Shown: piece after piece, positions 2,603 to 44,299 of the stretch
How positions within the stretch are numbered: position 1 is the first letter of the stretch
How the letters are laid out: each line of letters begins with the position of its first letter
IMG/VR virus record: IMGVR_UViG_3300044759_000025
Coordinates: 1-44,299 of that record
From: a virus
Taxonomy: Duplodnaviria; Caudoviricetes
Length of the DNA stretch: 44,299 nt
Reading direction: 5' to 3' (one strand)
Notes under the pieces: model-generated
The model's input: only the letters and a program-made list of their open reading frames with translations
Told to the model about the DNA's origin: nothing
Databases searched by the model: none
Translations under genes and position numbers: made by a program

Positions 2603-2947
2603 ATGCCGTTCCAGCCCGGCAATCAAATCGGCAATCTGGGCAATCGCTCCGGCATCCCAAAACGCCCGCGCATCGTCACGCAACGGCTCATTGCCATCCT
2701 CAATGAAACCGACGAGGACAACATCCCGAAGCTGCATCGTCTCGCAAGCGCCCTCTACAATCGCGCCATCGAAGGCGATGTCGCAGCCATCAAGGAAGTG
2801 ATCGATCGCGTGGAAGGCAAAGTCCCGCAGCCCATCGCAGGCGATCCCGACAACCCGCTCGTGGTGGCCTCAGTCATCCGCGAAATCGTAGACCCACAGT
2901 CCAACGTCATAGCGCTGCCCGATGCTAGCTCTTCCAGAGCCTCTTGA
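2603..2947 (+). CDS. Putative terminase small subunit
   Basis: MPFQPGNQIGN N-terminus and EVIDRVEGKVPQ motif; directly upstream of terL. Confidence 0.7.
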   Translation: MPFQPGNQIGNLGNRSGIPKRPRIVTQRLIAILNETDEDNIPKLHRLASALYNRAIEGDVAAIKEVIDRVEGKVPQPIAGDPDNPLVVASVIREIVDPQSNVIALPDASSSRAS

Positions 2948-4235
2948 AGGCCAAAAGCTCCGCATCGGAACGGCCCGCGCCTTCAAGCCGCTCCTCGCTC
3001 CAGCTCGCTACAAAGGCGCATACGGAGGCCGCGGCTCGGGCAAGTCCCACTTCTTCGCGGAAAGCCTCGTGGAAGCCTGCATTCTGCAGCCGGGAACATC
3101 AGCCGTCTGCATCCGTGAGATCCAGCGCACTCTCACCCAATCCGCGAAAAGACTTATCGAGCAGAAGATCGAGGCTCTCGGGGTCGGGCCGCTTTTCCGC
3201 ATCTTTGAGGATCGCATAAAGACACCAGGCGATGGTCTCATCATCTTTGTCGGCATGCAGGACCATACCGCAGAGAGTATCAAGTCGCTCGAGGGTTTTC
3301 GTATCGCTTGGATCGAGGAAGCACAGACGCTTAGCCATCGCTCATTAGCCCTTCTGCGGCCCACGATCCGCGTGGAAGGCTCGGAGATCTGGGCTTCCTG
3401 GAACCCGCGCCGCAAGAGCGATGCAATAGATGAATTCCTGCGGACAGAATGCCCTCCGGGGGCCATTGTCGTCCAGAGCAATTGGCGCGACAATCCTTGG
3501 TTTACCGAGGTTCTCGAGGCCGAGCGCGTCCTCGATCAGCGCCGCTATCCGGAGCGCTATGGGCACATCTGGGAGGGCGAATATGCAAGGGCTTTCGAAG
3601 GCGCTTACTTCGCTTCTGGCCTCAATGCGGCGAAGGCGGAGGGCAGGATCGGCCGGGTCTCCGCAGATCCACTCCTGCCCATTAGAGCCTTCTGGGATCT
3701 CGGAGGATCCGGTGCCACTGCGGACGCAATGGCCATCTGGATCTGTCAATGGATTGGTCAGGAAATCAGGGTTTTGGACTACATCGAGGGGATCGGCCAG
3801 GTTCTCGCCTATTACGTCGATGAACTACGACGCAGACGACACGATAAAGCCATATGCTACCTGCCCCACGACGGAGTGAACGAGAACAACATCACCGGCA
3901 AGCGCTACGAGCAGCACCTACGGGACGCGGGCTTTGACGTGCAGCCGCCAGTGAAGAACCAAGGCCGCGGAGCCGCGGCAATGCGGGTGGAGGCAGTCAG
4001 GCGCATCTTCCCCAAGCTCTGGTTCAATGAGGCCACGACGGAGGCGGGAAGGGACGCCCTGGGCTACTATCACGAGCGCAGGGACGACGATCGGAACATC
4101 GGCCTCGGGCCCGAGCATGACTGGAGCAGTCACGCTGCGGACGCCTTCGGGCTGATGGCTATTTGCTATGAGGAACCGGCTCGTTCTGCGGGCTTTGGGC
4201 GGAAGCTGGTGTATCCAAGGCTCGGGATCGCTTGA
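2922..4235 (+). CDS. terL: Terminase large subunit (PBSX-type)
   Basis: Walker A YGGRGSGKS, Walker B WIEEAQ, coupling motif WNP, nuclease WDLG and HDWSSHAADAF. Confidence 0.96.
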   Translation: MLALPEPLEGQKLRIGTARAFKPLLAPARYKGAYGGRGSGKSHFFAESLVEACILQPGTSAVCIREIQRTLTQSAKRLIEQKIEALGVGPLFRIFEDRIKTPGDGLIIFVGMQDHTAESIKSLEGFRIAWIEEAQTLSHRSLALLRPTIRVEGSEIWASWNPRRKSDAIDEFLRTECPPGAIVVQSNWRDNPWFTEVLEAERVLDQRRYPERYGHIWEGEYARAFEGAYFASGLNAAKAEGRIGRVSADPLLPIRAFWDLGGSGATADAMAIWICQWIGQEIRVLDYIEGIGQVLAYYVDELRRRRHDKAICYLPHDGVNENNITGKRYEQHLRDAGFDVQPPVKNQGRGAAAMRVEAVRRIFPKLWFNEATTEAGRDALGYYHERRDDDRNIGLGPEHDWSSHAADAFGLMAICYEEPARSAGFGRKLVYPRLGIA

Positions 4236-4413
4236 GCGCGGCCTTACGCTCCACGAGTTCGTCGTATGCCGTGAGCCAGGGCTCATCGTAGCCGCGCAGC
4301 GTCTCCTCCTCGACCTCCTGCGGCGTCCAGTGGGTCTGGTGCAGCAGGTGATACAGGCGGCGGACCTCAGCCTTCAGATACGCCATGCGCGCAGCGGTCT
4401 TGGTAATGGCCAT
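4159..4413 (-). CDS. Hypothetical protein
   Basis: MAITKTAA...; last gene of a tightly packed leftward cluster; overlaps the terL 3' end convergently. Confidence 0.45.
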   Translation of the reverse strand: MAITKTAARMAYLKAEVRRLYHLLHQTHWTPQEVEEETLRGYDEPWLTAYDELVERKAALKRSRALDTPASAQSPQNEPVPHSK

Positions 4414-4414
4414 C

Positions 4415-4728
4415 TCATTCCGGAGCCTTCTGGCGGGCGCGGTAGGCTCGCATGCGGGCATTGTGAGTTTCACGGTTCTTGGCGTGCCATTTCTGAAAGC
4501 GCGTCGTCGGCGTTATAACGGAGCCGCGGGCTGAGGCGTTATAACAGGCTCGGGAGGTTTAACAGGTTCGATGCGCCGGCTGGAGGGTGAGCTGCTACTG
4601 CTCATCTGCGTCTTCTCGACGGGCTTGGTGCTCGGCTTCCTCGCTGGCTTGCTCTTCTGAGCGCACTTGTGCTCGTGGACGAGGTGCGCGGGGACGAGTT
4701 CGCCGCATGTGCATCGAAGCATGATCAT
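4415..4728 (-). pseudogene. Zn-finger/basic-tail hypothetical gene with an apparent -1 frameshift
   Basis: MIMLRCTCG...HKC ORF stops at 4513. The -1 frame continues VITPTTRFQKWHAKNRETHNARMRAYRARQK to a stop at 4415, adjacent to the next ATG. Confidence 0.5.
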
Positions 4729-5003
4729 GGCATGGCTTCGATCAGGGCCAGCAGGTCGGGGGGGAGCTGATCCCTGCGCCTGCCGTATCCCTGCTGGCGC
4801 TCCCATGCCGGCCTCGGAGCTTGCCGGCGCTTGCTGGGGATGCCGAAGCGGAAGAGGATGAGGCGGACGGTCGTGGGGGAAATGCCGAAGATCCCGGCGA
4901 CCTCGTTCACTGTCATGCGAGTTGTCAGGAACATGCGGCAGAGGGCGATATTGCGCTCGCGCCATAAAGCCTCTGCTTTGGCCGATGTGATCCAATCGCT
5001 CAT
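4725..5003 (-). CDS. HTH DNA-binding protein
   Basis: ERNIALCRMF...MTVNEVAGIFGISPTTVRLIL HTH pattern; overlapping start/stop with neighbours. Confidence 0.7.
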   Translation of the reverse strand: MSDWITSAKAEALWRERNIALCRMFLTTRMTVNEVAGIFGISPTTVRLILFRFGIPSKRRQAPRPAWERQQGYGRRRDQLPPDLLALIEAMP

Positions 5004-5416
5004 GGCTCTTCCTCTAGAGCCTCTTTCTTGCGGTGGCTTGACCACTCGAAGCCGATCGCCTTGTCCACCTCGTCGGCTTGGGCGCGCAGGTAGGCAGAGA
5101 GGCGGCGGATGGCATCGTCTTCGCCCTTCACCCAGTCGATGGCGCTCTGGATCGTTTTGGCGAAGTCCTGCGTGAAGGACATATCGTCCCAGAGCAGTAT
5201 GTCGATGTGGTAGCTGTCGTCATCCTGCGGATAGAGGTCGATGGGGCCGTGCCGGTCGCGAATGGTGAGCAGCACCAGCTCGATGCCGCGTCTGATGCCC
5301 TTCTCAAAGTCGGTGTCGCCGGTGGGGCAGACCATCCACTCGTCGGAGGTGCCGATAGCGGCGTTGCAGGTTGCCTTGAATTTCTTCTCCAGCGGGTCGT
5401 CTTCGTCGTCGCTCAT
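5000..5416 (-). CDS. Hypothetical acidic protein
   Basis: GC3-rich ORF coupled by an ATGA overlap to the downstream gene. Confidence 0.65.
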   Translation of the reverse strand: MSDDEDDPLEKKFKATCNAAIGTSDEWMVCPTGDTDFEKGIRRGIELVLLTIRDRHGPIDLYPQDDDSYHIDILLWDDMSFTQDFAKTIQSAIDWVKGEDDAIRRLSAYLRAQADEVDKAIGFEWSSHRKKEALEEEP

Positions 5417-5449
5417 GGAGGCCATCATGCCGCTGAAGAAGGGCAAAAT

Positions 5450-5941
5450 CTATAGACCGGAGTGCGGGGATATCGGACGCAGATGCTCCAAAGAGTGGCA
5501 GTTAGGGCAAACGATTATGAGGTTGTCCGTGGCGTTGTTTCCCGGGTTACGGTCTCTATGATGAACACACAGGATTTCAGTATGTCTATTGTAGCCGCAC
5601 ATTGAGCAGCGTTTCCAAGCGCCTCGTCGCTTCATCGCTCGCGCGAAAGATTGCGCAGACACATACGTGATGCGCCGTTCGAACCGATAGATTTCCCTGC
5701 ATTCGTGACTGCAAAATTTCCTCGGTCTCGATGGAGAATGACGTATCTGTTTTTTGCATCGAAGACAGCTACTGTGACGCGGCCGATCTGATCCGCCCAT
5801 TGCTATCGACTTGCAATGGTTGGAGCAATATTTGGCAGTATTCTTTCGATATGCTCGAACATTGAAGTTGGTCGAACAAGTGACGCAGGAGATTGCGATA
5901 CCACTCAAATCGGGGGCCTCCAAGAAAGTTATCAGTAGCAA
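5450..5941 (-). CDS. HNH endonuclease with N-terminal zinc-finger repeats (free-standing homing endonuclease)
   Basis: CxxC...YCSNHC and FCSHEC repeats, then HHRDRNPGNNATDNLIIVCPNCHSLEH; AT-richer than its flanks; start codon uncertain. Confidence 0.9.
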   Translation of the reverse strand: MLLITFLEAPDLSGIAISCVTCSTNFNVRAYRKNTAKYCSNHCKSIAMGGSDRPRHSSCLRCKKQIRHSPSRPRKFCSHECREIYRFERRITYVSAQSFARAMKRRGAWKRCSMCGYNRHTEILCVHHRDRNPGNNATDNLIIVCPNCHSLEHLRPISPHSGL

Positions 5942-5958
5942 TATACAGGAGAAACGCC

Positions 5959-6129
5959 ATGCCAGGGAAAGACGATAAGGGCATCAAGCCCGAAGGCCCG
6001 CGCGAGCCATACGCCGAGCCGGGCGAGAGCAAGGCCGGCAGGGGCGGGATCGTAAGCCCCGGCGGCACGCAGCCGAAGCCCAAGGAAGACCCGCGCAAGG
6101 ACGCCGGGGTTGCGCAGCCGAAGAAGTGA
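5959..6129 (+). CDS. Small disordered hypothetical protein (56 aa)
   Basis: AGGAG SD; MPGKDDKG...; GC3-rich codons. Confidence 0.6.
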   Translation: MPGKDDKGIKPEGPREPYAEPGESKAGRGGIVSPGGTQPKPKEDPRKDAGVAQPKK

Positions 6130-6166
6130 TCTGGCGGCCCCGGAAGGCGGCAGGGCGCGTCACCAG

Positions 6167-6319
6167 GTGCTGCATGAGTTCCGGTATGGCCTTGCGCTGG
6201 CCGTCGCGCTGGTGGCGCTCCTACCGGCGTGCAATGCGCGCTTCTCCTTCATGGAGCCCACCGTAGTCGTGCAGCCGCAGCCCTATCCCTATCCGCCGCC
6301 GGTGGTGGTGCGGCGCTGA
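6167..6319 (+). CDS. Putative small lipoprotein
   Basis: Hydrophobic GLALAVALVAL, lipobox LPA-C, then a Pro-rich tail; start uncertain. Confidence 0.45.
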   Translation: MLHEFRYGLALAVALVALLPACNARFSFMEPTVVVQPQPYPYPPPVVVRR

Positions 6320-6456
6320 AGAGGATCGCGGTCGGCTCCGCACTGCAGACCGCGTACCCCTCCGCCATGCCCCGGCTACACAATGCGCGGTCCGTGAAGC
6401 CAGGCCACTAAGCGGGCGCGCAGACCTGCAGCATAGCAGTCGCTCGAGGAACATGC

Positions 6457-7020
6457 ATGCCGAAACTATCGACCTCCGAGGTGCAAGCGCTGCTCAAGGC
6501 CGCGAAGAGCGATGCGCTGTCGGCTGCCGAAAGCTCCAAGCTCAGCGAGCGGCGCGGCAAGGCCATGGACTATTACCAGGGCGACATGGCCGCCGACATG
6601 CCGGCCGCTGCCGATCGCAGTCACGCCGTCTCCACCGACGTGGCGGATGTGGTCGAGGGCCTGATGCCTTCCATGATGGAGGTGTTCGTCGGCGGCGACC
6701 AGCCGGCGGAGTTCGTGGCGGTCGGGCAGGAGGACGAGAAGGCGGCGCAGCAAGAGACCGACTATGTGAACCATGTATTCATGCAGAAGAACAATGGCTT
6801 TGTGATCCTGTATACCTTCATCAAGGATGCGTTGCTGTCGAAGAATGCAATAGTGAAGGTGTATTGGGAAGAAAAAGAGGAGCACATCGAGGAGATGTTC
6901 TGGGGCCTGCCCGAGGCGGCCTATGGGATGATCAGCCAGAACAAGGACATCGAGATCGTCGAGCACACCGAGCGGGTGGGCATACCCGGCCAGCAGCCGA
7001 TGGAAGAGGGAGCGTATTGA
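6457..7020 (+). CDS. Portal protein, N-terminal part (187 aa)
   Basis: AMDYYQG, RSHAVSTDVADVVEGLMPSMMEVF, QETDYVNHVF and KDALLSKNAIVKVYWE match the N-terminal part of P22-like podovirus portals; AGGA SD. Confidence 0.9.
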   Translation: MPKLSTSEVQALLKAAKSDALSAAESSKLSERRGKAMDYYQGDMAADMPAAADRSHAVSTDVADVVEGLMPSMMEVFVGGDQPAEFVAVGQEDEKAAQQETDYVNHVFMQKNNGFVILYTFIKDALLSKNAIVKVYWEEKEEHIEEMFWGLPEAAYGMISQNKDIEIVEHTERVGIPGQQPMEEGAY

Positions 7021-7349
7021 TGAGGCGCAAGGACAAGGAGCGGCTGCTCGAACAGATCGTCGACCGGCAGGAGAGCCTCGACCGTGTGCGAGAGGACAAT
7101 GCGCGGCTGCGGGATGCGCTAGCGCAAATGAAGGCCGAACTGGATCTTGCGAAGCATGAACTGAAGGTCGGGCGCAGGATACAGGACGACTACAGTCGCA
7201 TGTCGGATCGGCTCCACGAAGCGCGGGCGGCGGCGAGCATCGCCAGGAGCAACCAGAAGATCCTCGAGGAGGCGCTTGCCAGCAAGAAGGCTGGCGATCC
7301 CAATTGGGAGAACGTGGCCGTCATGAAGATGCGCAAGGCCAATTACTGA
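7020..7349 (+). CDS. Coiled-coil protein (109 aa) lying between the two portal halves
   Basis: ATG overlaps the portal-N stop (TGATG), and its own stop overlaps the portal-C ATG (TGATG); heptad-like helical sequence. Confidence 0.75.
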   Translation: MRRKDKERLLEQIVDRQESLDRVREDNARLRDALAQMKAELDLAKHELKVGRRIQDDYSRMSDRLHEARAAASIARSNQKILEEALASKKAGDPNWENVAVMKMRKANY

Positions 7350-9190
7350 TGGCCATGCCTCCGTTCCCTCCCGGCCCGATGCCGCCTCCGGGTGGGATGC
7401 CGCCGCCCATGCCGCAGGGAGCCCCGCCAGGGCCTCCAATGCCTCCACCCGGTCCCGGAGGGCCTCCGGGCCCGCAGCTACCTCCAGGGCCTCCGCAGGG
7501 GCCGGGTGGGCCTCCCCCAATGCCAGCCATGCCGCCTCCGCCTCCGCCCGTTCCGGAGCGCGTGCATGACGTGAAGATCTCGCGCGTGCGGCGCTATGGC
7601 TGTGCGCGGGTGGAGAATGTGCCGCCGGAGGAGTTTGGCGTGAGCCGCCGCCAGCGCTCGGTGATGCTCAGGGACTGCGACTATTGCTATCACGAGGTGC
7701 GGCGCACGCAGGCCGATCTGATCAAGGACGGCTATGACAAGGCGCAGGTGGAGAGCTTGCCGGACTATACCGGCGACGGCGGCTCGGAGGAGGTGTCGCG
7801 CGATACGGTCGACGACAACAGCTTGGAGGCGTCGGAATACCTGAACCGGGCCACCCGGCAGATCCGCGTCACCGAGCACTACATCCTCATGGACTATGAG
7901 GGGAACGGCAGGCCGCGGCACTACCGGGTGACGACGGCGGGCAGCGGAGCCGAGATACTGAAGCGCAAAGGCAAGCCGGAGATCGTCCCCGACATCGTGC
8001 GCTTTGCGGCGATGACGCCGGTGATCATGCCGCACCGCTTTTTCGGGCTCTCGCTCGCCGATCTGGTCATGGACATTCAGCGCATCAAGACGGCGCTGAT
8101 CAGGGCGATCCTCGACAACATCTACTTCGCCAACAATCAGCGGCTGGAGGTAGCCGAGGACGGAGCCACAAAAGACACCATAGACGACGTGTTGGCGAAT
8201 AGGGTCGGCGGCATCATCCGCACGCGGCGCATCGGCAGCGTGGCACCCGTTCCCAACCAGCCGATCGGCAACTTCGTTTTCCCGGCGATCGAATACATGG
8301 ACGGGCAGCGCGAGTGGCGCACGGGGGTGACGAGGCAAGGGCAGGGATTGGACCCGAATGCCCTTCAAAACATAGGCGAGCGGGCGGTTTTGGACGCGCA
8401 ATCGATGGCGCGTGGCAAGATGAAGCTATTCGCCAGGATCTTCGCGGAGACGGGCATTCGGGAGATGTTCTGGTTGCTGCATACGACCATACGCCAGAAT
8501 GCCTCGCAGGCGGAGACGGTGAAGCTGCGCGGCAACTGGATCGAGGTGGACCCGCAGGAGTGGCGGCAGCGCGACGATCTCACCATCAATGTGGGCTTGG
8601 GCACCGGCAGCAAGGAGCAGGAGCTTTTCGCCCTCGACAAGATCCTCGGCATTCAGGTGAATGCCATGAAGATGCCGGAAACCAATCTGGCCGGTCCCGA
8701 GCAAGTCTACAACACGGTCGAGCAGATGACCCGCAAGGCCGGCTTCAAGAGCGTCGATCCTTTCTTCACCGATCCCACCAAGCAACCGCCGAAGCCGCCG
8801 ACGCCGAAGCCGGAAGAGCAGAAGGCGATGGCCGAGATGCAGATGGCGCAGCAGAAGGCGCAGCAGGATCTGCAGATGAAGCAGGCCGAGATGGCGATGC
8901 AGCAGCAGCGCTTTACGCAGGAGATGGCGATGCAGCAGCAGAAGGCGCAGGCCGATGCCGAATTGCAGATGCAAAAGCTGCGCATGGAAGGAGAACTGCA
9001 GCGCGAGCAGATGGTCGCCGAGATGGCTCTGAAGCGTGAGCAGATCGACGCCGAATTGAGGCTCAAGGGGCAGCAGCTCGAGGCCGAACTGGCGATGAAG
9101 GAGCGGCTCGGGGTGCTGGCGGCGCAGAGCAAGGCCGCGGCAGGCAATGGCGGCACGTCGCCTGTGCGGCCCGGCGGGGAGCCGGGCTGA
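7349..9190 (+). CDS. Portal protein, C-terminal part (613 aa) with Pro-rich leader
   Basis: HDVKI...VENVPPEEF, PHRFFGLSLADLVMDIQRIKT, RTGVTRQGQGLD, ARIFAETG and NVGLGTG motifs; Gln/Met-rich coiled-coil barrel. Confidence 0.9.
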   Translation: MAMPPFPPGPMPPPGGMPPPMPQGAPPGPPMPPPGPGGPPGPQLPPGPPQGPGGPPPMPAMPPPPPPVPERVHDVKISRVRRYGCARVENVPPEEFGVSRRQRSVMLRDCDYCYHEVRRTQADLIKDGYDKAQVESLPDYTGDGGSEEVSRDTVDDNSLEASEYLNRATRQIRVTEHYILMDYEGNGRPRHYRVTTAGSGAEILKRKGKPEIVPDIVRFAAMTPVIMPHRFFGLSLADLVMDIQRIKTALIRAILDNIYFANNQRLEVAEDGATKDTIDDVLANRVGGIIRTRRIGSVAPVPNQPIGNFVFPAIEYMDGQREWRTGVTRQGQGLDPNALQNIGERAVLDAQSMARGKMKLFARIFAETGIREMFWLLHTTIRQNASQAETVKLRGNWIEVDPQEWRQRDDLTINVGLGTGSKEQELFALDKILGIQVNAMKMPETNLAGPEQVYNTVEQMTRKAGFKSVDPFFTDPTKQPPKPPTPKPEEQKAMAEMQMAQQKAQQDLQMKQAEMAMQQQRFTQEMAMQQQKAQADAELQMQKLRMEGELQREQMVAEMALKREQIDAELRLKGQQLEAELAMKERLGVLAAQSKAAAGNGGTSPVRPGGEPG

Positions 9191-9483
9191 TGGCAGACGA
9201 TGAATTCGCCCTGCGCAAGGACATGGAGCGCGCGGCGATCGCGCAGCAGCTTCTGGAGAACTCGATCGTGGTCGAGGCATTCGCCGAACTGGAAGCCTCT
9301 TATCTCAATGCCTGGAAGGCGGCGCAGCCGCGCGATACGGAAGGCCGCGAGAAGCTCTGGCAGGCGGTGCAGATCGTCGGCAAGGTGAAGACGCACCTCG
9401 AACAGACCGCCGCCAATGGCCGGCTGGCGAGCCGCCAGATCGAGCGCGACTTCCGCCCGCCGAAGCGCTTCGGGATAGTCTGA
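9190..9483 (+). CDS. Small conserved podophage head-module protein
   Basis: Between portal and scaffold; AQQLLEN...REKLWQAVQ pattern; TGATG coupling. Confidence 0.75.
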   Translation: MADDEFALRKDMERAAIAQQLLENSIVVEAFAELEASYLNAWKAAQPRDTEGREKLWQAVQIVGKVKTHLEQTAANGRLASRQIERDFRPPKRFGIV

Positions 9484-9551
9484 AGCGTGACCTTTTGAGG
9501 CTGCTAAGTCCTTGATATTCCCTCGGCGCGCAGCCAAAGCGTGACCTTTTG
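9483..9551. repeat. 15-bp perfect direct repeat flanking an IHF-consensus site
   Basis: AAGCGTGACCTTTTG at 9483-9497 and 9537-9551; TAAGTCCTTGATA (9505-9517) is the reverse complement of WATCAANNNNTTR. Confidence 0.75.
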
Positions 9552-9644
9552 TGCAGTGCAGCACCACATTTACCCCACAGGGTGGGGTAGTCTGACTTTC
9601 ACCGACTAATGCCGACTTAGAACCGTTCCAAGGGAATTCCCTTC

Positions 9645-10727
9645 ATGTCCGAGCCTACCCAACCCGACGCGGGAGCGCCGGCTCCTGAGCCTATTGCTCC
9701 CGTTCCAGAGCCTTCTCCTCCACCTCCTCCCGCCTCCGACGCGCCAATTACCGCGCGAGAGGCGGGCGACCTCATTGCCGAGCAAGCCTCGGACACGCAA
9801 TCGTCCGACAAGGATGATGCCGGCCCGGCCGAAAGGCCCGTCCCCGGCGAGACTAAGGAGCCCGATCCCGCTTCCGAGCCGTCCATCGAGCCTCCGAGGT
9901 CTTGGTCCAAGGAACACAAGGAAGCCTTCAAGGCCCTCCCTCGCCATCTCCAGCAGGCAGTTGCGGAGAGCGAGCGCGCCCGAGAGGCGGACTTCCTCCA
10001 ACGGACCAGAGAAACCGCCGAGCAACGCAAGGCCGCCGAGGCCCTGGCGCAGCAGGCGGAACAGGCACAGGCACAGGCAAGAGCAGCCTACGAGCGGTCG
10101 CTGCCGCAAGAAGTGCTGCTGCTGGAGGCCAAGTACCACGAGGAATTCGGGACGCCCACCGAAGCTGAAATAGCGGAGTGGGAGAATACCGATCCGGCCA
10201 AAGCGGTACGCTGGAATGGTGCGCTTCAGCGCGTCCTGCGGGCTCGCAGGGAACTGGAGCAGCAGCAATCCCAGCAGGCCCAGCAGCAGCAGAAGGAGTG
10301 GCAGGAATTCGCTCAGGCGCGCGAGGCGTGGAAGGATGCGGAAACGCAGAAATTCCTCGAGAAAGCGCCTGAGTGGAAAGACCAAGCGACCTACGGAAAA
10401 AAGGTCGCCGGGATGATGGACTATTTGGAGAATGGCATCGGGTTCGAGCGAGAGTTTCTCGAACGCGCCGCCAACGAATATCTCCCGATCCAGATCCATG
10501 ACCACAAGTTCCAACTGCTCGCCTGGAAGGGCTACCTCTACGACGAGGCCCAGAAGGCTGCCCGCAGCCCGTCACGTGCCCCTGTTCCACCTGTCCAGCG
10601 TCCGGGCGTCCCTCCCGCAAGGGGAGAGGCCAACGAGGCTCGGCTTAGAGACCTCAACCGCCAATTGGACCGCACCGGAGACGCCCGCTCGGCCGCACGG
10701 CTGATCGCGGCAATGAATGGCCGGTAG
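9645..10727 (+). CDS. Capsid scaffolding protein
   Basis: Acidic/Pro-rich N-terminus, PPRSWSKE motif, long coiled coil, C-terminal LDRTGDARSAARLI; directly upstream of the capsid gene. Confidence 0.85.
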   Translation: MSEPTQPDAGAPAPEPIAPVPEPSPPPPPASDAPITAREAGDLIAEQASDTQSSDKDDAGPAERPVPGETKEPDPASEPSIEPPRSWSKEHKEAFKALPRHLQQAVAESERAREADFLQRTRETAEQRKAAEALAQQAEQAQAQARAAYERSLPQEVLLLEAKYHEEFGTPTEAEIAEWENTDPAKAVRWNGALQRVLRARRELEQQQSQQAQQQQKEWQEFAQAREAWKDAETQKFLEKAPEWKDQATYGKKVAGMMDYLENGIGFEREFLERAANEYLPIQIHDHKFQLLAWKGYLYDEAQKAARSPSRAPVPPVQRPGVPPARGEANEARLRDLNRQLDRTGDARSAARLIAAMNGR

Positions 10728-10745: not shown

Positions 10746-10893
10746 ATGGCATTAGACGCAGATACCTTCCTCACCTACGACAGTCGAGGAAACAGAGAAG
10801 ACCTGAGCGATATCATCTACAAGATCGCTCCGACGGAAACGCCGTTCGTGAGCGGCGTCGAGAAGGTGAAGGCGACTGCCACCAACCACGAGT
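10746..10893 (+). CDS. Major capsid protein, exon 1
   Basis: MALDADTFLTYDSRGNREDLSDIIYKIAPTETPF...ATATNHE is the N-terminus of the DUF5309/SU10-type major capsid family; absent from the ORF track because it is only 49 codons. Confidence 0.92.
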
Positions 10894-11725
10894 AAGGTAA
10901 AATCTGCTCGTGTAAAATTTGGCTATTTGCATTAAACTCCTTAGAGCGTCGGACCCCATAGAGGAAAAGTTCCGGTGATTGGACTAGATGCAGGTAAGGC
11001 CTTTGCTTACGTTACCGGCGTTTATCTCGGTGATGGATGTGTGACGATCCGGCGGGTAGTTGGGGAAACTCCCAAGCCTACCTTCCGGCTAAATACCATC
11101 GACGAGGATTTCGCCCGCACTACCGCTGCCGCATTGAGGCTGCTTAGCACTTACAAAGTGACGATAGGCTCTCATGCGGTTTCTAGGAGCAGCAAGCCGA
11201 ATTGGTATCTCTGTCTGGGCGATCGGGCATTGTGCGCGCGCCTTGTGGGAGACACCGAGAAGAAGCGGATAATTCCAGAGGACGTTTTCGGATGGCCTCG
11301 CGACCTGAAGCTGGCGTTCATCGCCGGTCTGATGGACAGCGAGGGCTATGTCGGGCGTAATGTCACGCCCGCAGGCAGTCGAAAATTTACTCTTGGCTAC
11401 AGGTCATGTGACCCTTGGTTTCATGATTTTATCCGACTTCTCCAATCTGTCGGCATTCTGATCGGTAAGATTGGCGCTGACACCCTCCCGTCTGGGAAGG
11501 TAGCACGCCGGTTCTCGATCAAGCTGCATTCTTGGGTAAAAAGCGGAGCCTATTTCAATATCGCGCGCAAACAGCGGCGAATTGAGGAATGGGCGGCAAA
11601 GGCAACCCCAGAGACTAATACGCCAAACATCCCTCTTGGATGAAGACAGAGTCCGATCTCCGCTCGAAAGACGGAGAGGGCGGCAGAAATGACCGCCCCG
11701 GCCCGCAAGGGCTGGTAACAGAATG
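10894..11725 (+). mobile_element. Group I self-splicing intron (832 nt) in the major capsid gene
   Basis: P1: exon CACGAGU pairs with GCUCGUG (10906-10912), U-G at the splice site. P3: UUUGGCUAU/AUACGCCAAA. P4: UUGCAU/AUGCAG. P7: GAGACUA (11611-11617)/GAGUCC (11649-11654). P8: CAUCC/GGAUG. P9 hairpins with GAAA and GCAA loops. Terminal G11725. Splicing restores H-E-W-Q-T. Confidence 0.93.
10975..11643 (+). CDS. Intron-encoded LAGLIDADG homing endonuclease (two-motif)
   Basis: Motifs FAYVTGVYLGDG and LAFIAGLMDSEG; GAGGA SD upstream of the GTG. Confidence 0.9.
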   Translation: MIGLDAGKAFAYVTGVYLGDGCVTIRRVVGETPKPTFRLNTIDEDFARTTAAALRLLSTYKVTIGSHAVSRSSKPNWYLCLGDRALCARLVGDTEKKRIIPEDVFGWPRDLKLAFIAGLMDSEGYVGRNVTPAGSRKFTLGYRSCDPWFHDFIRLLQSVGILIGKIGADTLPSGKVARRFSIKLHSWVKSGAYFNIARKQRRIEEWAAKATPETNTPNIPLG

Positions 11726-12525
11726 GGCAAACCCAAGACTTAGCCCCCGCCGCCGCCAACCACGTGCTGGAAGGCGACGACGCGACGACCGATGTGGTGA
11801 CGCCGACGACCCGTCTCGGCAACATCGCGCAGATCAGCGATAAGGTGGCGCGCGTTTCCGGCACGCAGCAGGTGATCGACAAGGCCGGGCGCGACAACGA
11901 ACTGTCCTATCAGATGGCTCTGAAAGGGCAGGAGCTGAAACGGGATATGGAATTTATCCTGCTCAGCAATACGGCCAAGGTGGCGGGCGCGGAGGCAACC
12001 CCGCGCAAGCTGGCGAGCGTGCTTTCGTGGATCGGCACCAACGACAGCTTCGGTGCGGCTCCCGGTGCATCGCCCGCCACCCTCGACGGCCTCGCCACGC
12101 GGACCGATGGCGTGCAGAGGGCCTTCACCGAGGCGCTTCTGAAGCCCGTTCTGCAGCTCATTTGGAACGAGGGCGGCAACCCGGACACCATCCTCGTGGG
12201 CGGGTTCAATAAGCAGGTCTTCAGTACCTTCACCGGCCGCAGCACGCCGCAGGAACAAGCCACGTCCAAAAAAATCGTCAATAGCGTGGAAATTTATGAA
12301 GGAGATTTCGGGACTTTGAAAGTAGTGGCTGATCGCTTCATGAGAGCAAGGGACTGCTTGATCTTGGAAATGGACAAGTGGGCAATCGCGTATCTCAGGA
12401 ATATGCAGCGCATCGACCTTGCCAGGACCGGCGACAGTGAGAGGAAGCAGATCCTAGTAGAATTTACGCTTGAGGCCCGCAACGAAAAAGCCTCGGGAAT
12501 GGTTGCCGATCTGAATACCGCCTAA
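11726..12525 (+). CDS. Major capsid protein, exon 2 (spliced product 315 aa)
   Basis: QTQDLA...VLEGDDA, RLGNIAQISDK, ELKRDME, YEGDFG and EFTLEARNEKASG match the DUF5309/SU10-type capsid. Confidence 0.93.
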
Positions 12526-19398: not shown

Positions 19399-20630
19399 TG
19401 GCTGTAAAAACGCGGGCCGAACTCAAGAGCGAGAACGCGGCCGACTTCCCCGACAATCAGGCCTATCTCATTTCGCCCGCCGCCTTGCGCGAGCAGTTGA
19501 ATGACATCGTCGATAGCGTGGTATTCCCTGCAGATAGTGGCCTGATGGGGCCACCAGGGCCTGCCGGCCCCGCGGGGCCTGTCGGTGCAGCGGGGTCAAT
19601 GGGACCACCAGGGGCCACGGGGCCAGCGGGACCGGAAGGGCCATTGCCGGACGTGGGCGGGCTGTCGGAGGATTGGGAAACCCTCTATCAGCCGTACCGG
19701 CCACCGCCGGGCACTGATCTGACAAGCAGTGAGGCCACTGTCTGGGAGTATGACCCAGACCAGCCTGCAACCGTCATCGCGGGCGATTTGGTTGTCGTGA
19801 AGCGCGGCGACGGAGACGCCAACATAGACGAATACAGCGATGTGCTACCGGCCCCGCTGCTGTGGGTTCGGTCGCACTATCGCGGATCGAATTCCTTGGG
19901 AGTTGCTGGCGGAGGTGGTTATCCAAAGACCATGATCCGCGGCGCTTTGACGACGTTTGAAGTCGGTGACAATTGCGATCTCGGACGGTGGAAATGCTCG
20001 ACCACGGGAGGGCTGGGAGGCACGCCGACCGGCGTGTTCGAGGGTGGGGCGGTCTTCACGGATTACTGGGGTGCCTATCGTGCAGTCACTCCCGGCGTAA
20101 CGCCGATCACGTATGGGGCGGCCGCCGGCGAAATCGTGGGCTACGAGAACAACTTCGGCGGCAGGCTTCGTTTTTCGCTGATGCCGGACTCGGTGCTGCA
20201 GACGGTGCGGCGCGTCGTCGGCGAACTGCGGGATTTCCTTCTCTACAGAACTCAGGCGTCCGGCGGCGATACGTCGCTCCGGTTCTGGTTCAACTCGACG
20301 ACCGATCTTGCCGCCGATCCGTTCACGATGACTTCCGGATCGGCGGTCGTATCGGTGGCACATACGGCGCACGACAAGGCGAATGGCAGCTTCGCACAGT
20401 TTGCTGGGGCGACAATAGCTCACGGCATCACTATCTCGGGCTGGTATACGATCTTCAACGTCAGCGCCAACGCCTACGACATCACGCACACGACGAACGC
20501 CACCAGCTCCGGCACCGGCGGCGGCGGCAACGTCGGCGTGGGCTTTACCACCGACCTTCAGAAGATCGTCAAATACGCCGAGGTAGCAAGCCTGCCTGCC
20601 AACGCCCGCGTTCTCTACATCCTCGCCTGA
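19398..20630 (+). CDS. Collagen-repeat (G-X-Y) fibre protein
   Basis: GPPGPAGPAGPVGAAGSMGPPGATGPAGPEGP; N-terminal anchor KTRAELKSENAADFPDN; TAATG coupling. Confidence 0.8.
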   Translation: MAVKTRAELKSENAADFPDNQAYLISPAALREQLNDIVDSVVFPADSGLMGPPGPAGPAGPVGAAGSMGPPGATGPAGPEGPLPDVGGLSEDWETLYQPYRPPPGTDLTSSEATVWEYDPDQPATVIAGDLVVVKRGDGDANIDEYSDVLPAPLLWVRSHYRGSNSLGVAGGGGYPKTMIRGALTTFEVGDNCDLGRWKCSTTGGLGGTPTGVFEGGAVFTDYWGAYRAVTPGVTPITYGAAAGEIVGYENNFGGRLRFSLMPDSVLQTVRRVVGELRDFLLYRTQASGGDTSLRFWFNSTTDLAADPFTMTSGSAVVSVAHTAHDKANGSFAQFAGATIAHGITISGWYTIFNVSANAYDITHTTNATSSGTGGGGNVGVGFTTDLQKIVKYAEVASLPANARVLYILA

Positions 20631-20640
20631 TGAGCGACAA

Positions 20641-20943
20641 ATGACAACCGAGGAAATCCGTGAGCGCGCCGAGGAATTGGACGCTGCCCTCGCCAACCCG
20701 ACCGTCGAGCTGCTGCAGGAGTTCAACGTCTTTACGACGCAGGTGCGCAATGCTGCCTGGGATGACCCGGCCTTTCAGGTGGCAGGCGAACCGGTGCCGC
20801 TGCAGGTCTTTCATCAGAGCACTGAAGCATTGATCGGAAGCCTGCAAACCTATCTCAGCCTCGAGGCGCACGCCAACCCGATCCCGGTCGGGCTGCTGGA
20901 CGGCAATATCGAGGCGTGGCGTCAGGCGCTGGCTGCTATCTGA
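20641..20943 (+). CDS. Hypothetical protein, possible fibre chaperone
   Basis: Acidic helical 100-aa ORF directly after the collagen fibre. Confidence 0.6.
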   Translation: MTTEEIRERAEELDAALANPTVELLQEFNVFTTQVRNAAWDDPAFQVAGEPVPLQVFHQSTEALIGSLQTYLSLEAHANPIPVGLLDGNIEAWRQALAAI

Positions 20944-20953
20944 GGACAATGAG

Positions 20954-21643
20954 ATGGCACTTGACACCTATGCGGCCCTGAAAGCCTCCGCCCTGGCGTG
21001 GATCGAGCGGACCGGCGATCCTGCCGCCACCGGCATCGTGGACGACTGTGTGACGCTGTGCGAGGCGCGCATCAACAAGACGCCGACGCTGCGCATGTCG
21101 CACATGGAGACGCAGGCGGTGCTGACGCTCGCCAACGGCCAGGCGGACCTCCCTGCCGACTTCCTGGCGATGAAGCGGGTGGTATCCGGCTATGGCCCTG
21201 GCGGCGGCTTCGACGAGGGCTTCGATGTGGGCTTTGACATTGGCGCTGCGGGGATGCCGGTGCTGGTGGGGACGGCGCGGCTGATCGTCTACGCCGAGCC
21301 GGGCTGGTATGACCAGGCGCATCCGACCGGCACTTCGGACGAGAGCGCCGGCTTCTACACCATCATCGGCACGACGCTGCATTGCCGGTCCTCGTCGACG
21401 CTCGGCATCCTCTACTACGCCAAGGTACCGCTGCTGGCGACGAACGATCCGAACTGGCTGCTGGTGAAAGCGCCGGACGTGTATCTGTTCGGGACCATTC
21501 TGGAGATCCTGAACGCGCTCGAGGGGCAGGGCGTGGAGAAGTATGCGGGGCTGTTCGGGGGTGCCGTGCAGGCTCTCATTGCCTCGGAGACGTTCTCCCG
21601 CGGCGGCGTGCTGACCATGCGCGCTTCAATGCCGACTCCTTGA
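20954..21643 (+). CDS. Head-tail adaptor protein
   Basis: MALDTYAALKA...LCEARIN...LPADFL...YYAKVP...NWLLVKAPDVYLFG, a podophage adaptor pattern. Confidence 0.85.
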   Translation: MALDTYAALKASALAWIERTGDPAATGIVDDCVTLCEARINKTPTLRMSHMETQAVLTLANGQADLPADFLAMKRVVSGYGPGGGFDEGFDVGFDIGAAGMPVLVGTARLIVYAEPGWYDQAHPTGTSDESAGFYTIIGTTLHCRSSSTLGILYYAKVPLLATNDPNWLLVKAPDVYLFGTILEILNALEGQGVEKYAGLFGGAVQALIASETFSRGGVLTMRASMPTP

Positions 21644-21644
21644 C

Positions 21645-21869
21645 ATGGCGGGCAATATTTGGGGCGAGGGTCCGCGCGGCGGGATATTCGGCGCGCGGAT
21701 AGACCCGCAGCCACAGCCGCCTCCTGTGGACCGGGAAGCGCAGGTTCTGGCACAGTTGCAGGCGGAGCAGCCGGGCTTCGAGGACAGGATTGCGCAATGG
21801 TGGGGATCGCTTCCTCCCCCAGAGCGGCAGCGATATATTCGGGCTCTTGATGAGAGGGCGAGCGAATGA
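21645..21869 (+). CDS. Small hypothetical protein
   Basis: Fills the gap between adaptor and HNH; ATGA overlap. Confidence 0.55.
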   Translation: MAGNIWGEGPRGGIFGARIDPQPQPPPVDREAQVLAQLQAEQPGFEDRIAQWWGSLPPPERQRYIRALDERASE

Positions 21870-22474
21870 AGGCACTTACAGAAGCCGAAATGGTGGGCCA
21901 GCGCTTCGGTAAGCTTGTAGTGCTTGGCCTCGCAGGGAAGGGAAAACGGCGTGGAAAGCGCTATTGGCTCTGCCGCTGCGATTGTGGGTATGAGAAATCA
22001 ATTGAGGGGCACAGCCTTCGTAACGGAAATACCAAAACATGCGGGGTGAAGTGTATCCGCACCTTCAAGCATGGACATTCATCGAGCACGTTCTTGAGCC
22101 CAACTTACCACTCCTGGATGGGTATGAAAGCGCGCTGCCGGCAAGGGTGGAGGAAGGGCGCAAAATACTATATCGGACGGGGCATTTCTTACGATCCGCA
22201 ATGGGAGAAGTTTGAGAACTTTCTTGCCGACATGGGCGAGCGTCCTGCGGAATGCGACAGCCTAGACCGCATAGATACCGATCAAGGGTATAGCAGGGCC
22301 AATTGCCGGTGGGCGACATGGACTGAGCAAGCCCGCAATAGGAGAAATTCAAAGACATTTACCTATGAGGGGCGGACTCTGCCCATAGCAGAGTGGGCTG
22401 AGAAGCGCGGTATTTCATACATCGCAGCATATAAGCGCATCATAAGACATGGCAGTTTGGAGTTGCCGAGATGA
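21866..22474 (+). CDS. HNH-like free-standing homing endonuclease
   Basis: GQRFGKLVVL, WLCRCDCG, YHSWMGMKARC and SLDRIDTDQGYSRANCRWATWTEQARNRR; AT-richer than flanks. Confidence 0.9.
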   Translation: MKALTEAEMVGQRFGKLVVLGLAGKGKRRGKRYWLCRCDCGYEKSIEGHSLRNGNTKTCGVKCIRTFKHGHSSSTFLSPTYHSWMGMKARCRQGWRKGAKYYIGRGISYDPQWEKFENFLADMGERPAECDSLDRIDTDQGYSRANCRWATWTEQARNRRNSKTFTYEGRTLPIAEWAEKRGISYIAAYKRIIRHGSLELPR

Positions 22475-36596: not shown

Positions 36597-36764
36597 TCAG
36601 TCGCTCCCGCGATCCTCTTCCTCAGCCGCCCTGCCGGCCTTGCAGTCGCAGTATCTCCAGCCATTGCCATCTTCAGGGCCCTTGAAGAGATAAACGCCCT
36701 CGTCCTTGCACTTCAGGCAGTCGTAAGGCAGCGGCTTGGCGTGTTCGCTCTCGTGCTCGCTCAT
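36597..36764 (-). CDS. Small Zn-finger protein (55 aa)
   Basis: Read by hand: CLKCKDEG...YCDCKAG; ATGA coupling. Confidence 0.6.
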   Translation of the reverse strand: MSEHESEHAKPLPYDCLKCKDEGVYLFKGPEDGNGWRYCDCKAGRAAEEEDRGSD

Positions 36765-37084
36765 CGTAAGACAGTCTCCCCGTTCATCAGCTTCTTGTAT
36801 TTCGAGTTCCGCGAGCCCGGCATGGTGGACTTGCGCCGGATGCCCATCCGCTTATCAGCAAGCCGCCGGGTCTTATCGATCTCAGAGCGGCGCTCCTGGG
36901 TGGTCAGTCCGTGGCATGATCGGCAGAGCACGATGCAGTTTTCCAGCGTGGCCTCGCCCCCGAGATAGGCCTCGATCCGGTGGTGATATTCCAGCCGCTG
37001 CTTGCAGCCGCACAACTCGCAGCGGCCATTGGCGCGCAGGAAAGCATCACGGCGCACGGCCTTGGAAAACTCGCGTCTATCCAT
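36761..37084 (-). CDS. HNH endonuclease (early region)
   Basis: RREFSKAV...GRCELCG...EYHH...GGEATLENCIVLCRSCH. Confidence 0.88.
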   Translation of the reverse strand: MDRREFSKAVRRDAFLRANGRCELCGCKQRLEYHHRIEAYLGGEATLENCIVLCRSCHGLTTQERRSEIDKTRRLADKRMGIRRKSTMPGSRNSKYKKLMNGETVLR

Positions 37085-37106
37085 TGCCGTGCGCCTAGGC
37101 ATTAGA

Positions 37107-37274
37107 TCAGAAGCACGTCGTCGTGTTGCCGTATGTCGTGCAGGTGGTCGTGCCGCTATTGCTGCTACCCGTCTCAAAGCATGTCGTCGTATTGCCGTAC
37201 GTGGTGCAGGTGACGCCGGCCCACGCATTGCTCGCGAACAGGACGATCCCGACAGTCATCAAAACTCTACGCAT
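37107..37274 (-). CDS. Secreted peptide with duplicated CTTYGNTTTC motif
   Basis: Signal peptide ending AWA, then two TCTTYGNTTTCF units; AAGGGAG SD. Confidence 0.75.
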   Translation of the reverse strand: MRRVLMTVGIVLFASNAWAGVTCTTYGNTTTCFETGSSNSGTTTCTTYGNTTTCF

Positions 37275-43736: not shown

Positions 43737-44299
43737 ATGGTCGTCGTCAACCTCGAAAACGACGCGGAAGCCGCTGCCAGGTTTCACCGGATACGCCGCG
43801 AGAACCCTTGGGCGATAGCGGGTCTTTATCGCTTCGATGACCTTCCGAAACGTCCACTGCTGCAGACGTGGCGGACATGCTTCCCCGACTGGTCCGGAGT
43901 AGCTCTCGCGCCGGGCATGGTGAGCATCGCTACGGGTCTTCCAGGCTCCGGCAAAACGCATCTCTTGGCGCAGATCTGGAACCACGTCGTTGGCAAATAC
44001 GGCTTGCGGGCGCTGGTCGCCTCGTTCGAGTGCGCGCCGCATCCCTACTATGTGCGCTATCTCCGAGAGTTTTTTGCTCGTCGCCGTGAAGCCGAGATGT
44101 CGGAGAAGCAGCTTCGCGAGGCTGATCAGTATATCCGCGACCACTACATGTTTCTGCTGCATCCGGACGAGACGCCGACGCTCGAATGGTTTCTTTCGAT
44201 GGCTGAGATTGCGGTGGCTCGCGAGGGCGTGAAAGTCATCCAGCTAGATCCGTGGAACCGGCTGGAAAGCCAGCGCGGACCGAAAGAGACTGAGCCAGA
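43737..44299 (+). CDS. DnaB/SF4 replicative helicase, N-terminal part (wraps to 1-469)
   Basis: Read by hand: MVVVNLEND...SIATGLPGSGKT (Walker A)...VASFE; open to the window end. Confidence 0.88.
   Translation, partial: MVVVNLENDAEAAARFHRIRRENPWAIAGLYRFDDLPKRPLLQTWRTCFPDWSGVALAPGMVSIATGLPGSGKTHLLAQIWNHVVGKYGLRALVASFECAPHPYYVRYLREFFARRREAEMSEKQLREADQYIRDHYMFLLHPDETPTLEWFLSMAEIAVAREGVKVIQLDPWNRLESQRGPKETEP
44171..44299. repeat. Terminal direct repeat (circular assembly overlap), copy 2
   Basis: Matches 1-129. Confidence 0.97.

Follow-up and report, generated by a model that had tools for sequence, protein, structure and literature searches.

Here, we present comparative evidence that the portal of a tailed phage is encoded by two intact genes, portal-N and portal-C, as a recurrent variant of a known portal family, and that the two chains are probably made separately and lock non-covalently into portal subunits. 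The genes lie in the window, i.e., the whole 44,299-nucleotide stretch of DNA that was analysed, a 44.3-kb virus record that is 95% complete. A Pfam profile search with each half, as proposed in a preliminary description of this DNA, matched both to PF23899 (profile length 593, curated cut-off 30 bits), and together the halves tile its profile (Table 1). They are the sole PF23899 matches in the genome and thus represent its only portal, which is of the SU10 type. The head module is ordered terminase, opposite-strand accessory stretch, portal-N, middle gene, portal-C, 97-aa gene, scaffold and capsid, so that the portal halves are placed between the terminase and the scaffold/capsid genes, as expected for an SU10-type portal. 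The phage is likely temperate, as the window also encodes an integrase.

portal-N aligns with residues 23-173 of the Pa223 portal and comprises a conserved core of 172 aa and a tail of 15 aa, the codons of which form a purine-rich, SD-like stretch ahead of the next gene. The conserved part of portal-C begins at HDV (position 7565), and its alignment with Pa223 starts at residue 183. It is preceded by a Pro/Gly/Met leader, which is longer than the roughly 65 aa estimated previously (Table 1) and which is the counterpart of the variable loop in fused portals. At the DNA level, the two halves are in different frames with stops between them. The three-ORF layout and both Tyr-TGATG overlaps were confirmed exactly where the preliminary description had placed them. 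Scanning of positions 5900-9700 revealed no promoter and, between the halves, no plus-strand terminator.

Table 1 Coordinates of the portal genes and associated features (window positions unless stated otherwise)
Feature	Position	Strand	Remarks
Terminase large subunit	2922-4235	+	PF04466, 96 bits; phrog_3717
Opposite-strand accessory ORFs	4159-5941	-	One HNH-like; between terminase and portal-N
portal-N	6457-7020	+	187 aa, ends EEGAY; PF23899 2-163, 182 bits
First stop/start overlap	7015-7022	+	TATTGATG; bridged by runs X2, X4, X5
Middle (passenger) gene	7020-7349	+	109 aa; small family, optional
Second stop/start overlap	7344-7351	+	TACTGATG; bridged by runs X3, X5
portal-C	7349-9190	+	613 aa from ATG; PF23899 171-592, 436 bits
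portal-C Pro/Gly/Met leader	7349-7564	+	72 aa, 39 Pro
Scaffolding protein	9645-10727	+	phrog_3927
Major capsid gene, with likely group I intron	10746-12525	+	Separate feature from the portal split
OP596614 portal-C frame	Record about 19585-21246 (L059 5465-7126)		Starts at TGATG overlap

The two-ORF portal is real and not an assembly error. Among contigs from four other sediment sequencing runs, compared with at least 31 letters on each side of a junction, those of three runs bridged the first junction and those of two runs the second, in each case without differences (Table 1). The possible source run spans both junctions, and another IMG/VR contig is 100% identical at the protein level. The preliminary description had named indel errors as a concern to be settled with reads; the contigs of the other runs cross both junctions with zero indels. 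Its claim that the clean arrangement is not decay agrees with the dN/dS values of the two halves, which, by a simple counting method over 16 split-split pairs, were 0.01-0.28 for portal-N and 0.04-0.19 for portal-C, indicating that both are under purifying selection.

The same split recurs among relatives. Loci were collected from IMG/VR, from GTDB genomes, from metagenomes and from two cultured phages and gave 179 rows including the window, namely 79 fused, 63 split, 17 whose contig lacks portal-C and 20 not scored (minus-strand or fragmentary loci); as rows were ordered by similarity to the query and include repeated entries, these counts are not family frequencies. The split rows comprise 57 clean splits and six ambiguous loci with negative gaps, which resemble fused genes with a frameshift and not clean splits. 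At 95% N-core identity the clean splits form 37 clusters and the fused rows 54; at 70% identity, 13 and 21 clusters remain. The homolog survey suggested earlier thus found a same-site split in 57 of 179 rows, and a second scan with the C half as query added 77 new rows (21 split, 55 fused, one incomplete). The break of each clean split lies between the IEIVEH strand and HDV, portal-C has an in-frame ATG (57 of 57) and the N tail is 7-38 aa long. Direct stop/start overlaps (TGATG/TAATG) join the halves in 13 clean splits, 11 overlap further and 33 are spaced; among the 37 split clusters, gaps range from 22 to 6095 nt, with frame offsets distributed 16/15/6. Across all relatives, the portal junction ranges from an overlap to a gap of about 7 kb, in all three frames and with no or unrelated inserts. 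In L110, L120, L140, L142 and L180 the linker contains frame changes without a clean stop/start, which could be errors, signs of decay or a step on the way to the split.

Split portals are also found in bacterial genomes. In one genus, which shares its family with a Xanthobacteraceae genome, a portal match was present in 74 of 401 genomes. By hand count, 37 of these have the two halves matched separately on a single contig, with 15 to about 7,000 nt between them, six have a single uninterrupted match and 11 a truncated N only. Both halves were present in 18 of 20 genus regions examined, and in 15 of the 18 the C frame spans 500-561 codons; in the remaining three, a partial upstream duplicate had been measured and the full C match lies downstream. 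The gaps share little DNA and are largely unrelated. These loci (L177, L181-L198) outline a genus-wide element that may be domesticated or decaying. It comprises terminase, portal-N, portal-C, the 97-aa gene and the capsid gene; every boundary between them holds variable cargo that runs to kilobases, and portal ends occur as partial duplicates. In L199, L200 and nine further genomes, portal-N is cut short at comparable positions (profile 2-115 to 2-126); L199 and L200 have it behind an intact-looking terminase and lack a nearby portal-C. Given the cargo at every head-gene boundary and the 11 genomes with truncated N only, some loci of this genus may make no virions.

By structural comparison, the break is predicted to lie in a loop. 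Fused relatives have a linker of 4-95 aa at the break site, which is often Pro-rich. In a predicted model of the fused relative L028, which is of middling confidence (pLDDT 67.7, pTM 0.60), the linker (174-182) is a loop between strands 165-173 and 183-202. The top-ranking matches of the model were SU10 (Z 24.2, rmsd 10.7, 467 aligned) and Pa223 (Z 23.9, rmsd 11.3, 531 aligned); the portal fold is thus seen in the model of a fused relative, at high rmsd. The break is accordingly predicted between two beta-strands of the wing, and N and C would pair via the strands that flank it. By sequence, it corresponds to Pa223 173-183, directly ahead of the strand that bears the wing basic motif (Pa223 190-193; PMC13386823) and about 8-11 residues short of where this motif lies.

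The gene between the halves likely is a swappable passenger. Its protein has 15 homologues, and the viral loci found lie inside the portal gap in six of six cases. The label 'coiled coil' rests on sequence pattern and sub-threshold Pfam matches only; there was no Pfam match over the cut-off and no PHROG, the Atlas gave unnamed clusters at 0.91 and no family, and a profile search of 1.84 billion representatives returned no family, its hits being three true relatives and three long repetitive proteins. Among the 14 split portals of the window clade, seven have the middle gene, six join N and C directly by TGATG and one has a different, 76-aa gene. Its presence is scattered on the clade trees; the N tree requires four changes, and shuffles require no more. 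At a dN/dS of 0.21-0.71 (four pairs), the gene is under weaker constraint than the portal halves; the last 27 residues are well conserved. In L003, which joins N and C directly, the junction has exactly the letters of the second window junction, up to and into the MAMPP start, and other inserts (L048, L011) terminate with N-tail copies. These repeats suggest insertion with junction duplication, and the repeated Tyr-TGATG is best read as the junction duplicated when the middle gene inserted. We therefore propose that the break became an ordinary gene boundary able to take up passenger genes, that the passenger in the window would have entered by an insertion duplicating the TAyTGATG junction, and that the 109-aa protein would be cargo and not a ring component. 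Proteins encoded as cargo in other gaps are, for example, a hexapeptide acetyltransferase, an HTH protein and an Ntox44 protein, five of 17 scanned ORFs having a match; nuclease families were detected neither for the middle gene nor among the 17 cargo ORFs scanned. One portal-gap cargo gene (L179 2529-2714) had a weak Acb2/Tad1 hairpin match below the cut-off (22.1 of 27 bits).

The history of the split appears complex. A single origin was rejected on the C-core tree (AU p 1e-111; 48 rows, quick LG+G4 tree), on which split forms are not one clade. Split and fused states changed 12 times over 81 rows, seven of these forced by starred branches, and the N tree has only five changes, two of them forced, fewer than the C tree; such counts do not separate new fissions from re-fusions or recombination. 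Distant lineages have tail and start motifs in common (AY-stop, ATS-stop, MLAP, MDA), and fused forms are nested among split ones; both are compatible with repeated fission, re-fusion or junction exchange. portal-N of L016 is 99% identical to that of L015 and 84% to that of L024, whereas its portal-C is 91% and 96% identical, respectively. These discordant nearest relatives hint at reassortment at the break.

Could the split instead reflect mis-assembly, or a gene decaying in a dead genome? Frameshift-like breaks do occur inside the same loop in a few relatives and some bacterial loci are remnants, but at the window locus the junctions are bridged by independent contigs, both halves are under purifying selection and the window clade is split in 14 of 14 cases though its portals differ by about 20%, which leaves artefact or decay with next to no probability. 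It is also very unlikely that the halves are fused after all, be it by frameshift, ribosome hop, intron or split intein. One slip could fuse them where they overlap directly (13 of 57) or further (11), a likely intron exists elsewhere in the window phage and one contig of run X24 skips 7023-7344. Yet neither gap size nor frame is conserved, with all three frame offsets and kilobase gaps with unrelated genes, and 24 of the 57 clean splits leave no room for an intron. A slippery heptamer occurred in one of 37 N tails and nowhere at 6900-7600. A Tyr-to-Tyr hop would land ahead of another stop; the C frame has no Tyr codon before HDV, and no usable Tyr landing codon was found. Intein halves have a Cys start and a His-Asn end; Cys was present in none of the 57 N tails and H[NQ][CST] in none of the 57 C leaders. 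Rfam had no match in the window and 14 split loci, a silence that is weak because Rfam likewise missed the likely capsid intron, so that gap diversity is the stronger argument. No RNA run containing this stretch was listed; the one RNA-labelled run compared, X24, is flagged as probably DNA and contains distant relatives only, not the window phage. Its contig, placed at 80% likeness with one side of 27 letters, fits an insert-free relative, and as the joint lies after the N stop, no fusion would be made. Recoding to a fusion, which the preliminary description had considered, thus finds no support.

With two separate products, portal-C alone might ring the mature virion and portal-N serve as an assembly factor that is released or sub-stoichiometric. 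Direct translational coupling is lost across long cargo gaps, so that equal amounts of N and C are not guaranteed; the nearest relatives of N and C are discordant in one lineage (L016); and the wing of the P22 portal is described as its scaffold-binding, mobile part (PMC13386823). We nevertheless consider this scenario unlikely, since portal-N is equally conserved in split and fused portals according to the alignments, the N region contributes helices and strands within the subunit body of the L028 model, and the virion portal of Pa223 is ordered from residue 11 onward (bioRxiv 2025.06.11.659172). A role of the 109-aa protein as a third portal subunit in stoichiometric amounts, also raised previously, is hardly tenable. 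Its gene is coupled on both sides, is found only in the portal slot (6/6 loci) and has a conserved C-terminal stretch and a dN/dS below 1, but it is missing from seven of the 14 closest split relatives and from all other split lineages, is scattered on the clade trees and takes the place of no segment of the portal profile. The protein may nevertheless have an optional, modifying role. As no intron, intein or slippery site was found, the two chains most likely assemble non-covalently. The two-chain ring put forward in the preliminary description is thus supported by comparative evidence. In the proposed portal, the two chains would rebuild each subunit, the ring would hold twelve copies of each and the stop/start overlaps would couple translation along one late transcript.

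It is tempting to speculate, although we regard it as doubtful, that the break is useful in itself by providing an N wing chain that is exchangeable between phages or regulated separately from the channel chain, together with a cargo slot of up to 7 kb. If true, an essential structural gene holds a cargo slot and the family has repeatedly made a two-module portal. A natural two-chain portal would show that a portal subunit can be completed in trans, and the break would mark a loop tolerant of cuts and long insertions. The solved relatives are rings of the single-chain type, in which subunit folding, ring size and scaffold binding are considered to be under the control of the wing; a two-chain portal would give a native handle on the assembly role of the N-terminal wing.

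The proposal is directly testable because the cultured Bradyrhizobium phage OP596614, whose host is the non-pathogenic B. elkanii USDA 76, carries the same split, with halves of about 184 and 553 aa joined by TGATG and no other PF23899 match. In its GenBank record portal-N is 'hypothetical' and portal-C is not annotated, and the split explains why the portal was missed. According to PMC10127595, OP596614 is a spontaneously produced podophage with strongly enriched DNase-treated particle DNA; there, both the podophage morphology and the link between these particles and the OP596614 prophage were deduced by the authors, and the host also carries a siphophage.

The window genome has further interrupted or accessory regions. 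The major capsid gene is interrupted in codon 50 (10894-11725) by a likely group I intron with ends U and G, an S-element-like motif at 11643 and a LAGLIDADG-like ORF (10975-11643), which was not detected by Rfam. Besides the HNH-like ORF upstream of portal-N, more HNH-type endonuclease genes are located at 21866-22474 and 36761-37228, one of them inside the tail module. The record ends (43737-44297 and 29-469) match adjoining parts of the primase/helicase phrog_239, suggesting a circular genome opened in this gene.

The window portal resembles SU10-type portals (PF23899, phrog_1216) in head-module position and in that its halves tile their profile. The solved representatives (Pa223 9NWM, PaP3 7SXK, SU10 7Z44) are single chains of 705-747 aa, whereas in the window the gene is broken, at the DNA level, at about Pa223 173-183. 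We found no description of a split portal in the literature, with subscription journals mostly beyond the scope of the search. The nearest parallel is provided by phage enzymes encoded by genes in pieces, such as Aeh1 NrdA-a/NrdA-b split by mobE, T4 topoisomerase split by mobA, and gp43A/43B, the pieces of which reassemble without splicing (PMC2988022, PMC3045599). Common to both are an essential phage gene present as two ORFs, an inserted gene and new terminal tails, and both window portal halves are likewise kept by selection. However, these enzymes are mostly split by homing endonucleases, whereas the window portal is a structural ring whose insert is optional and no nuclease; many portal splits have no insert at all, and their tails, unlike those of the enzymes, vary widely in length and sequence. 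The 57 tails and leaders also lack intein motifs, which sets split portals apart from fractured genes with split inteins. The latter reportedly consist of two gene halves with another gene between them. Morons and accessory slots in phage head operons are swappable small genes entering at stop/start junctions; in contrast to such slots, the portal slot lies inside what relatives have as one gene.
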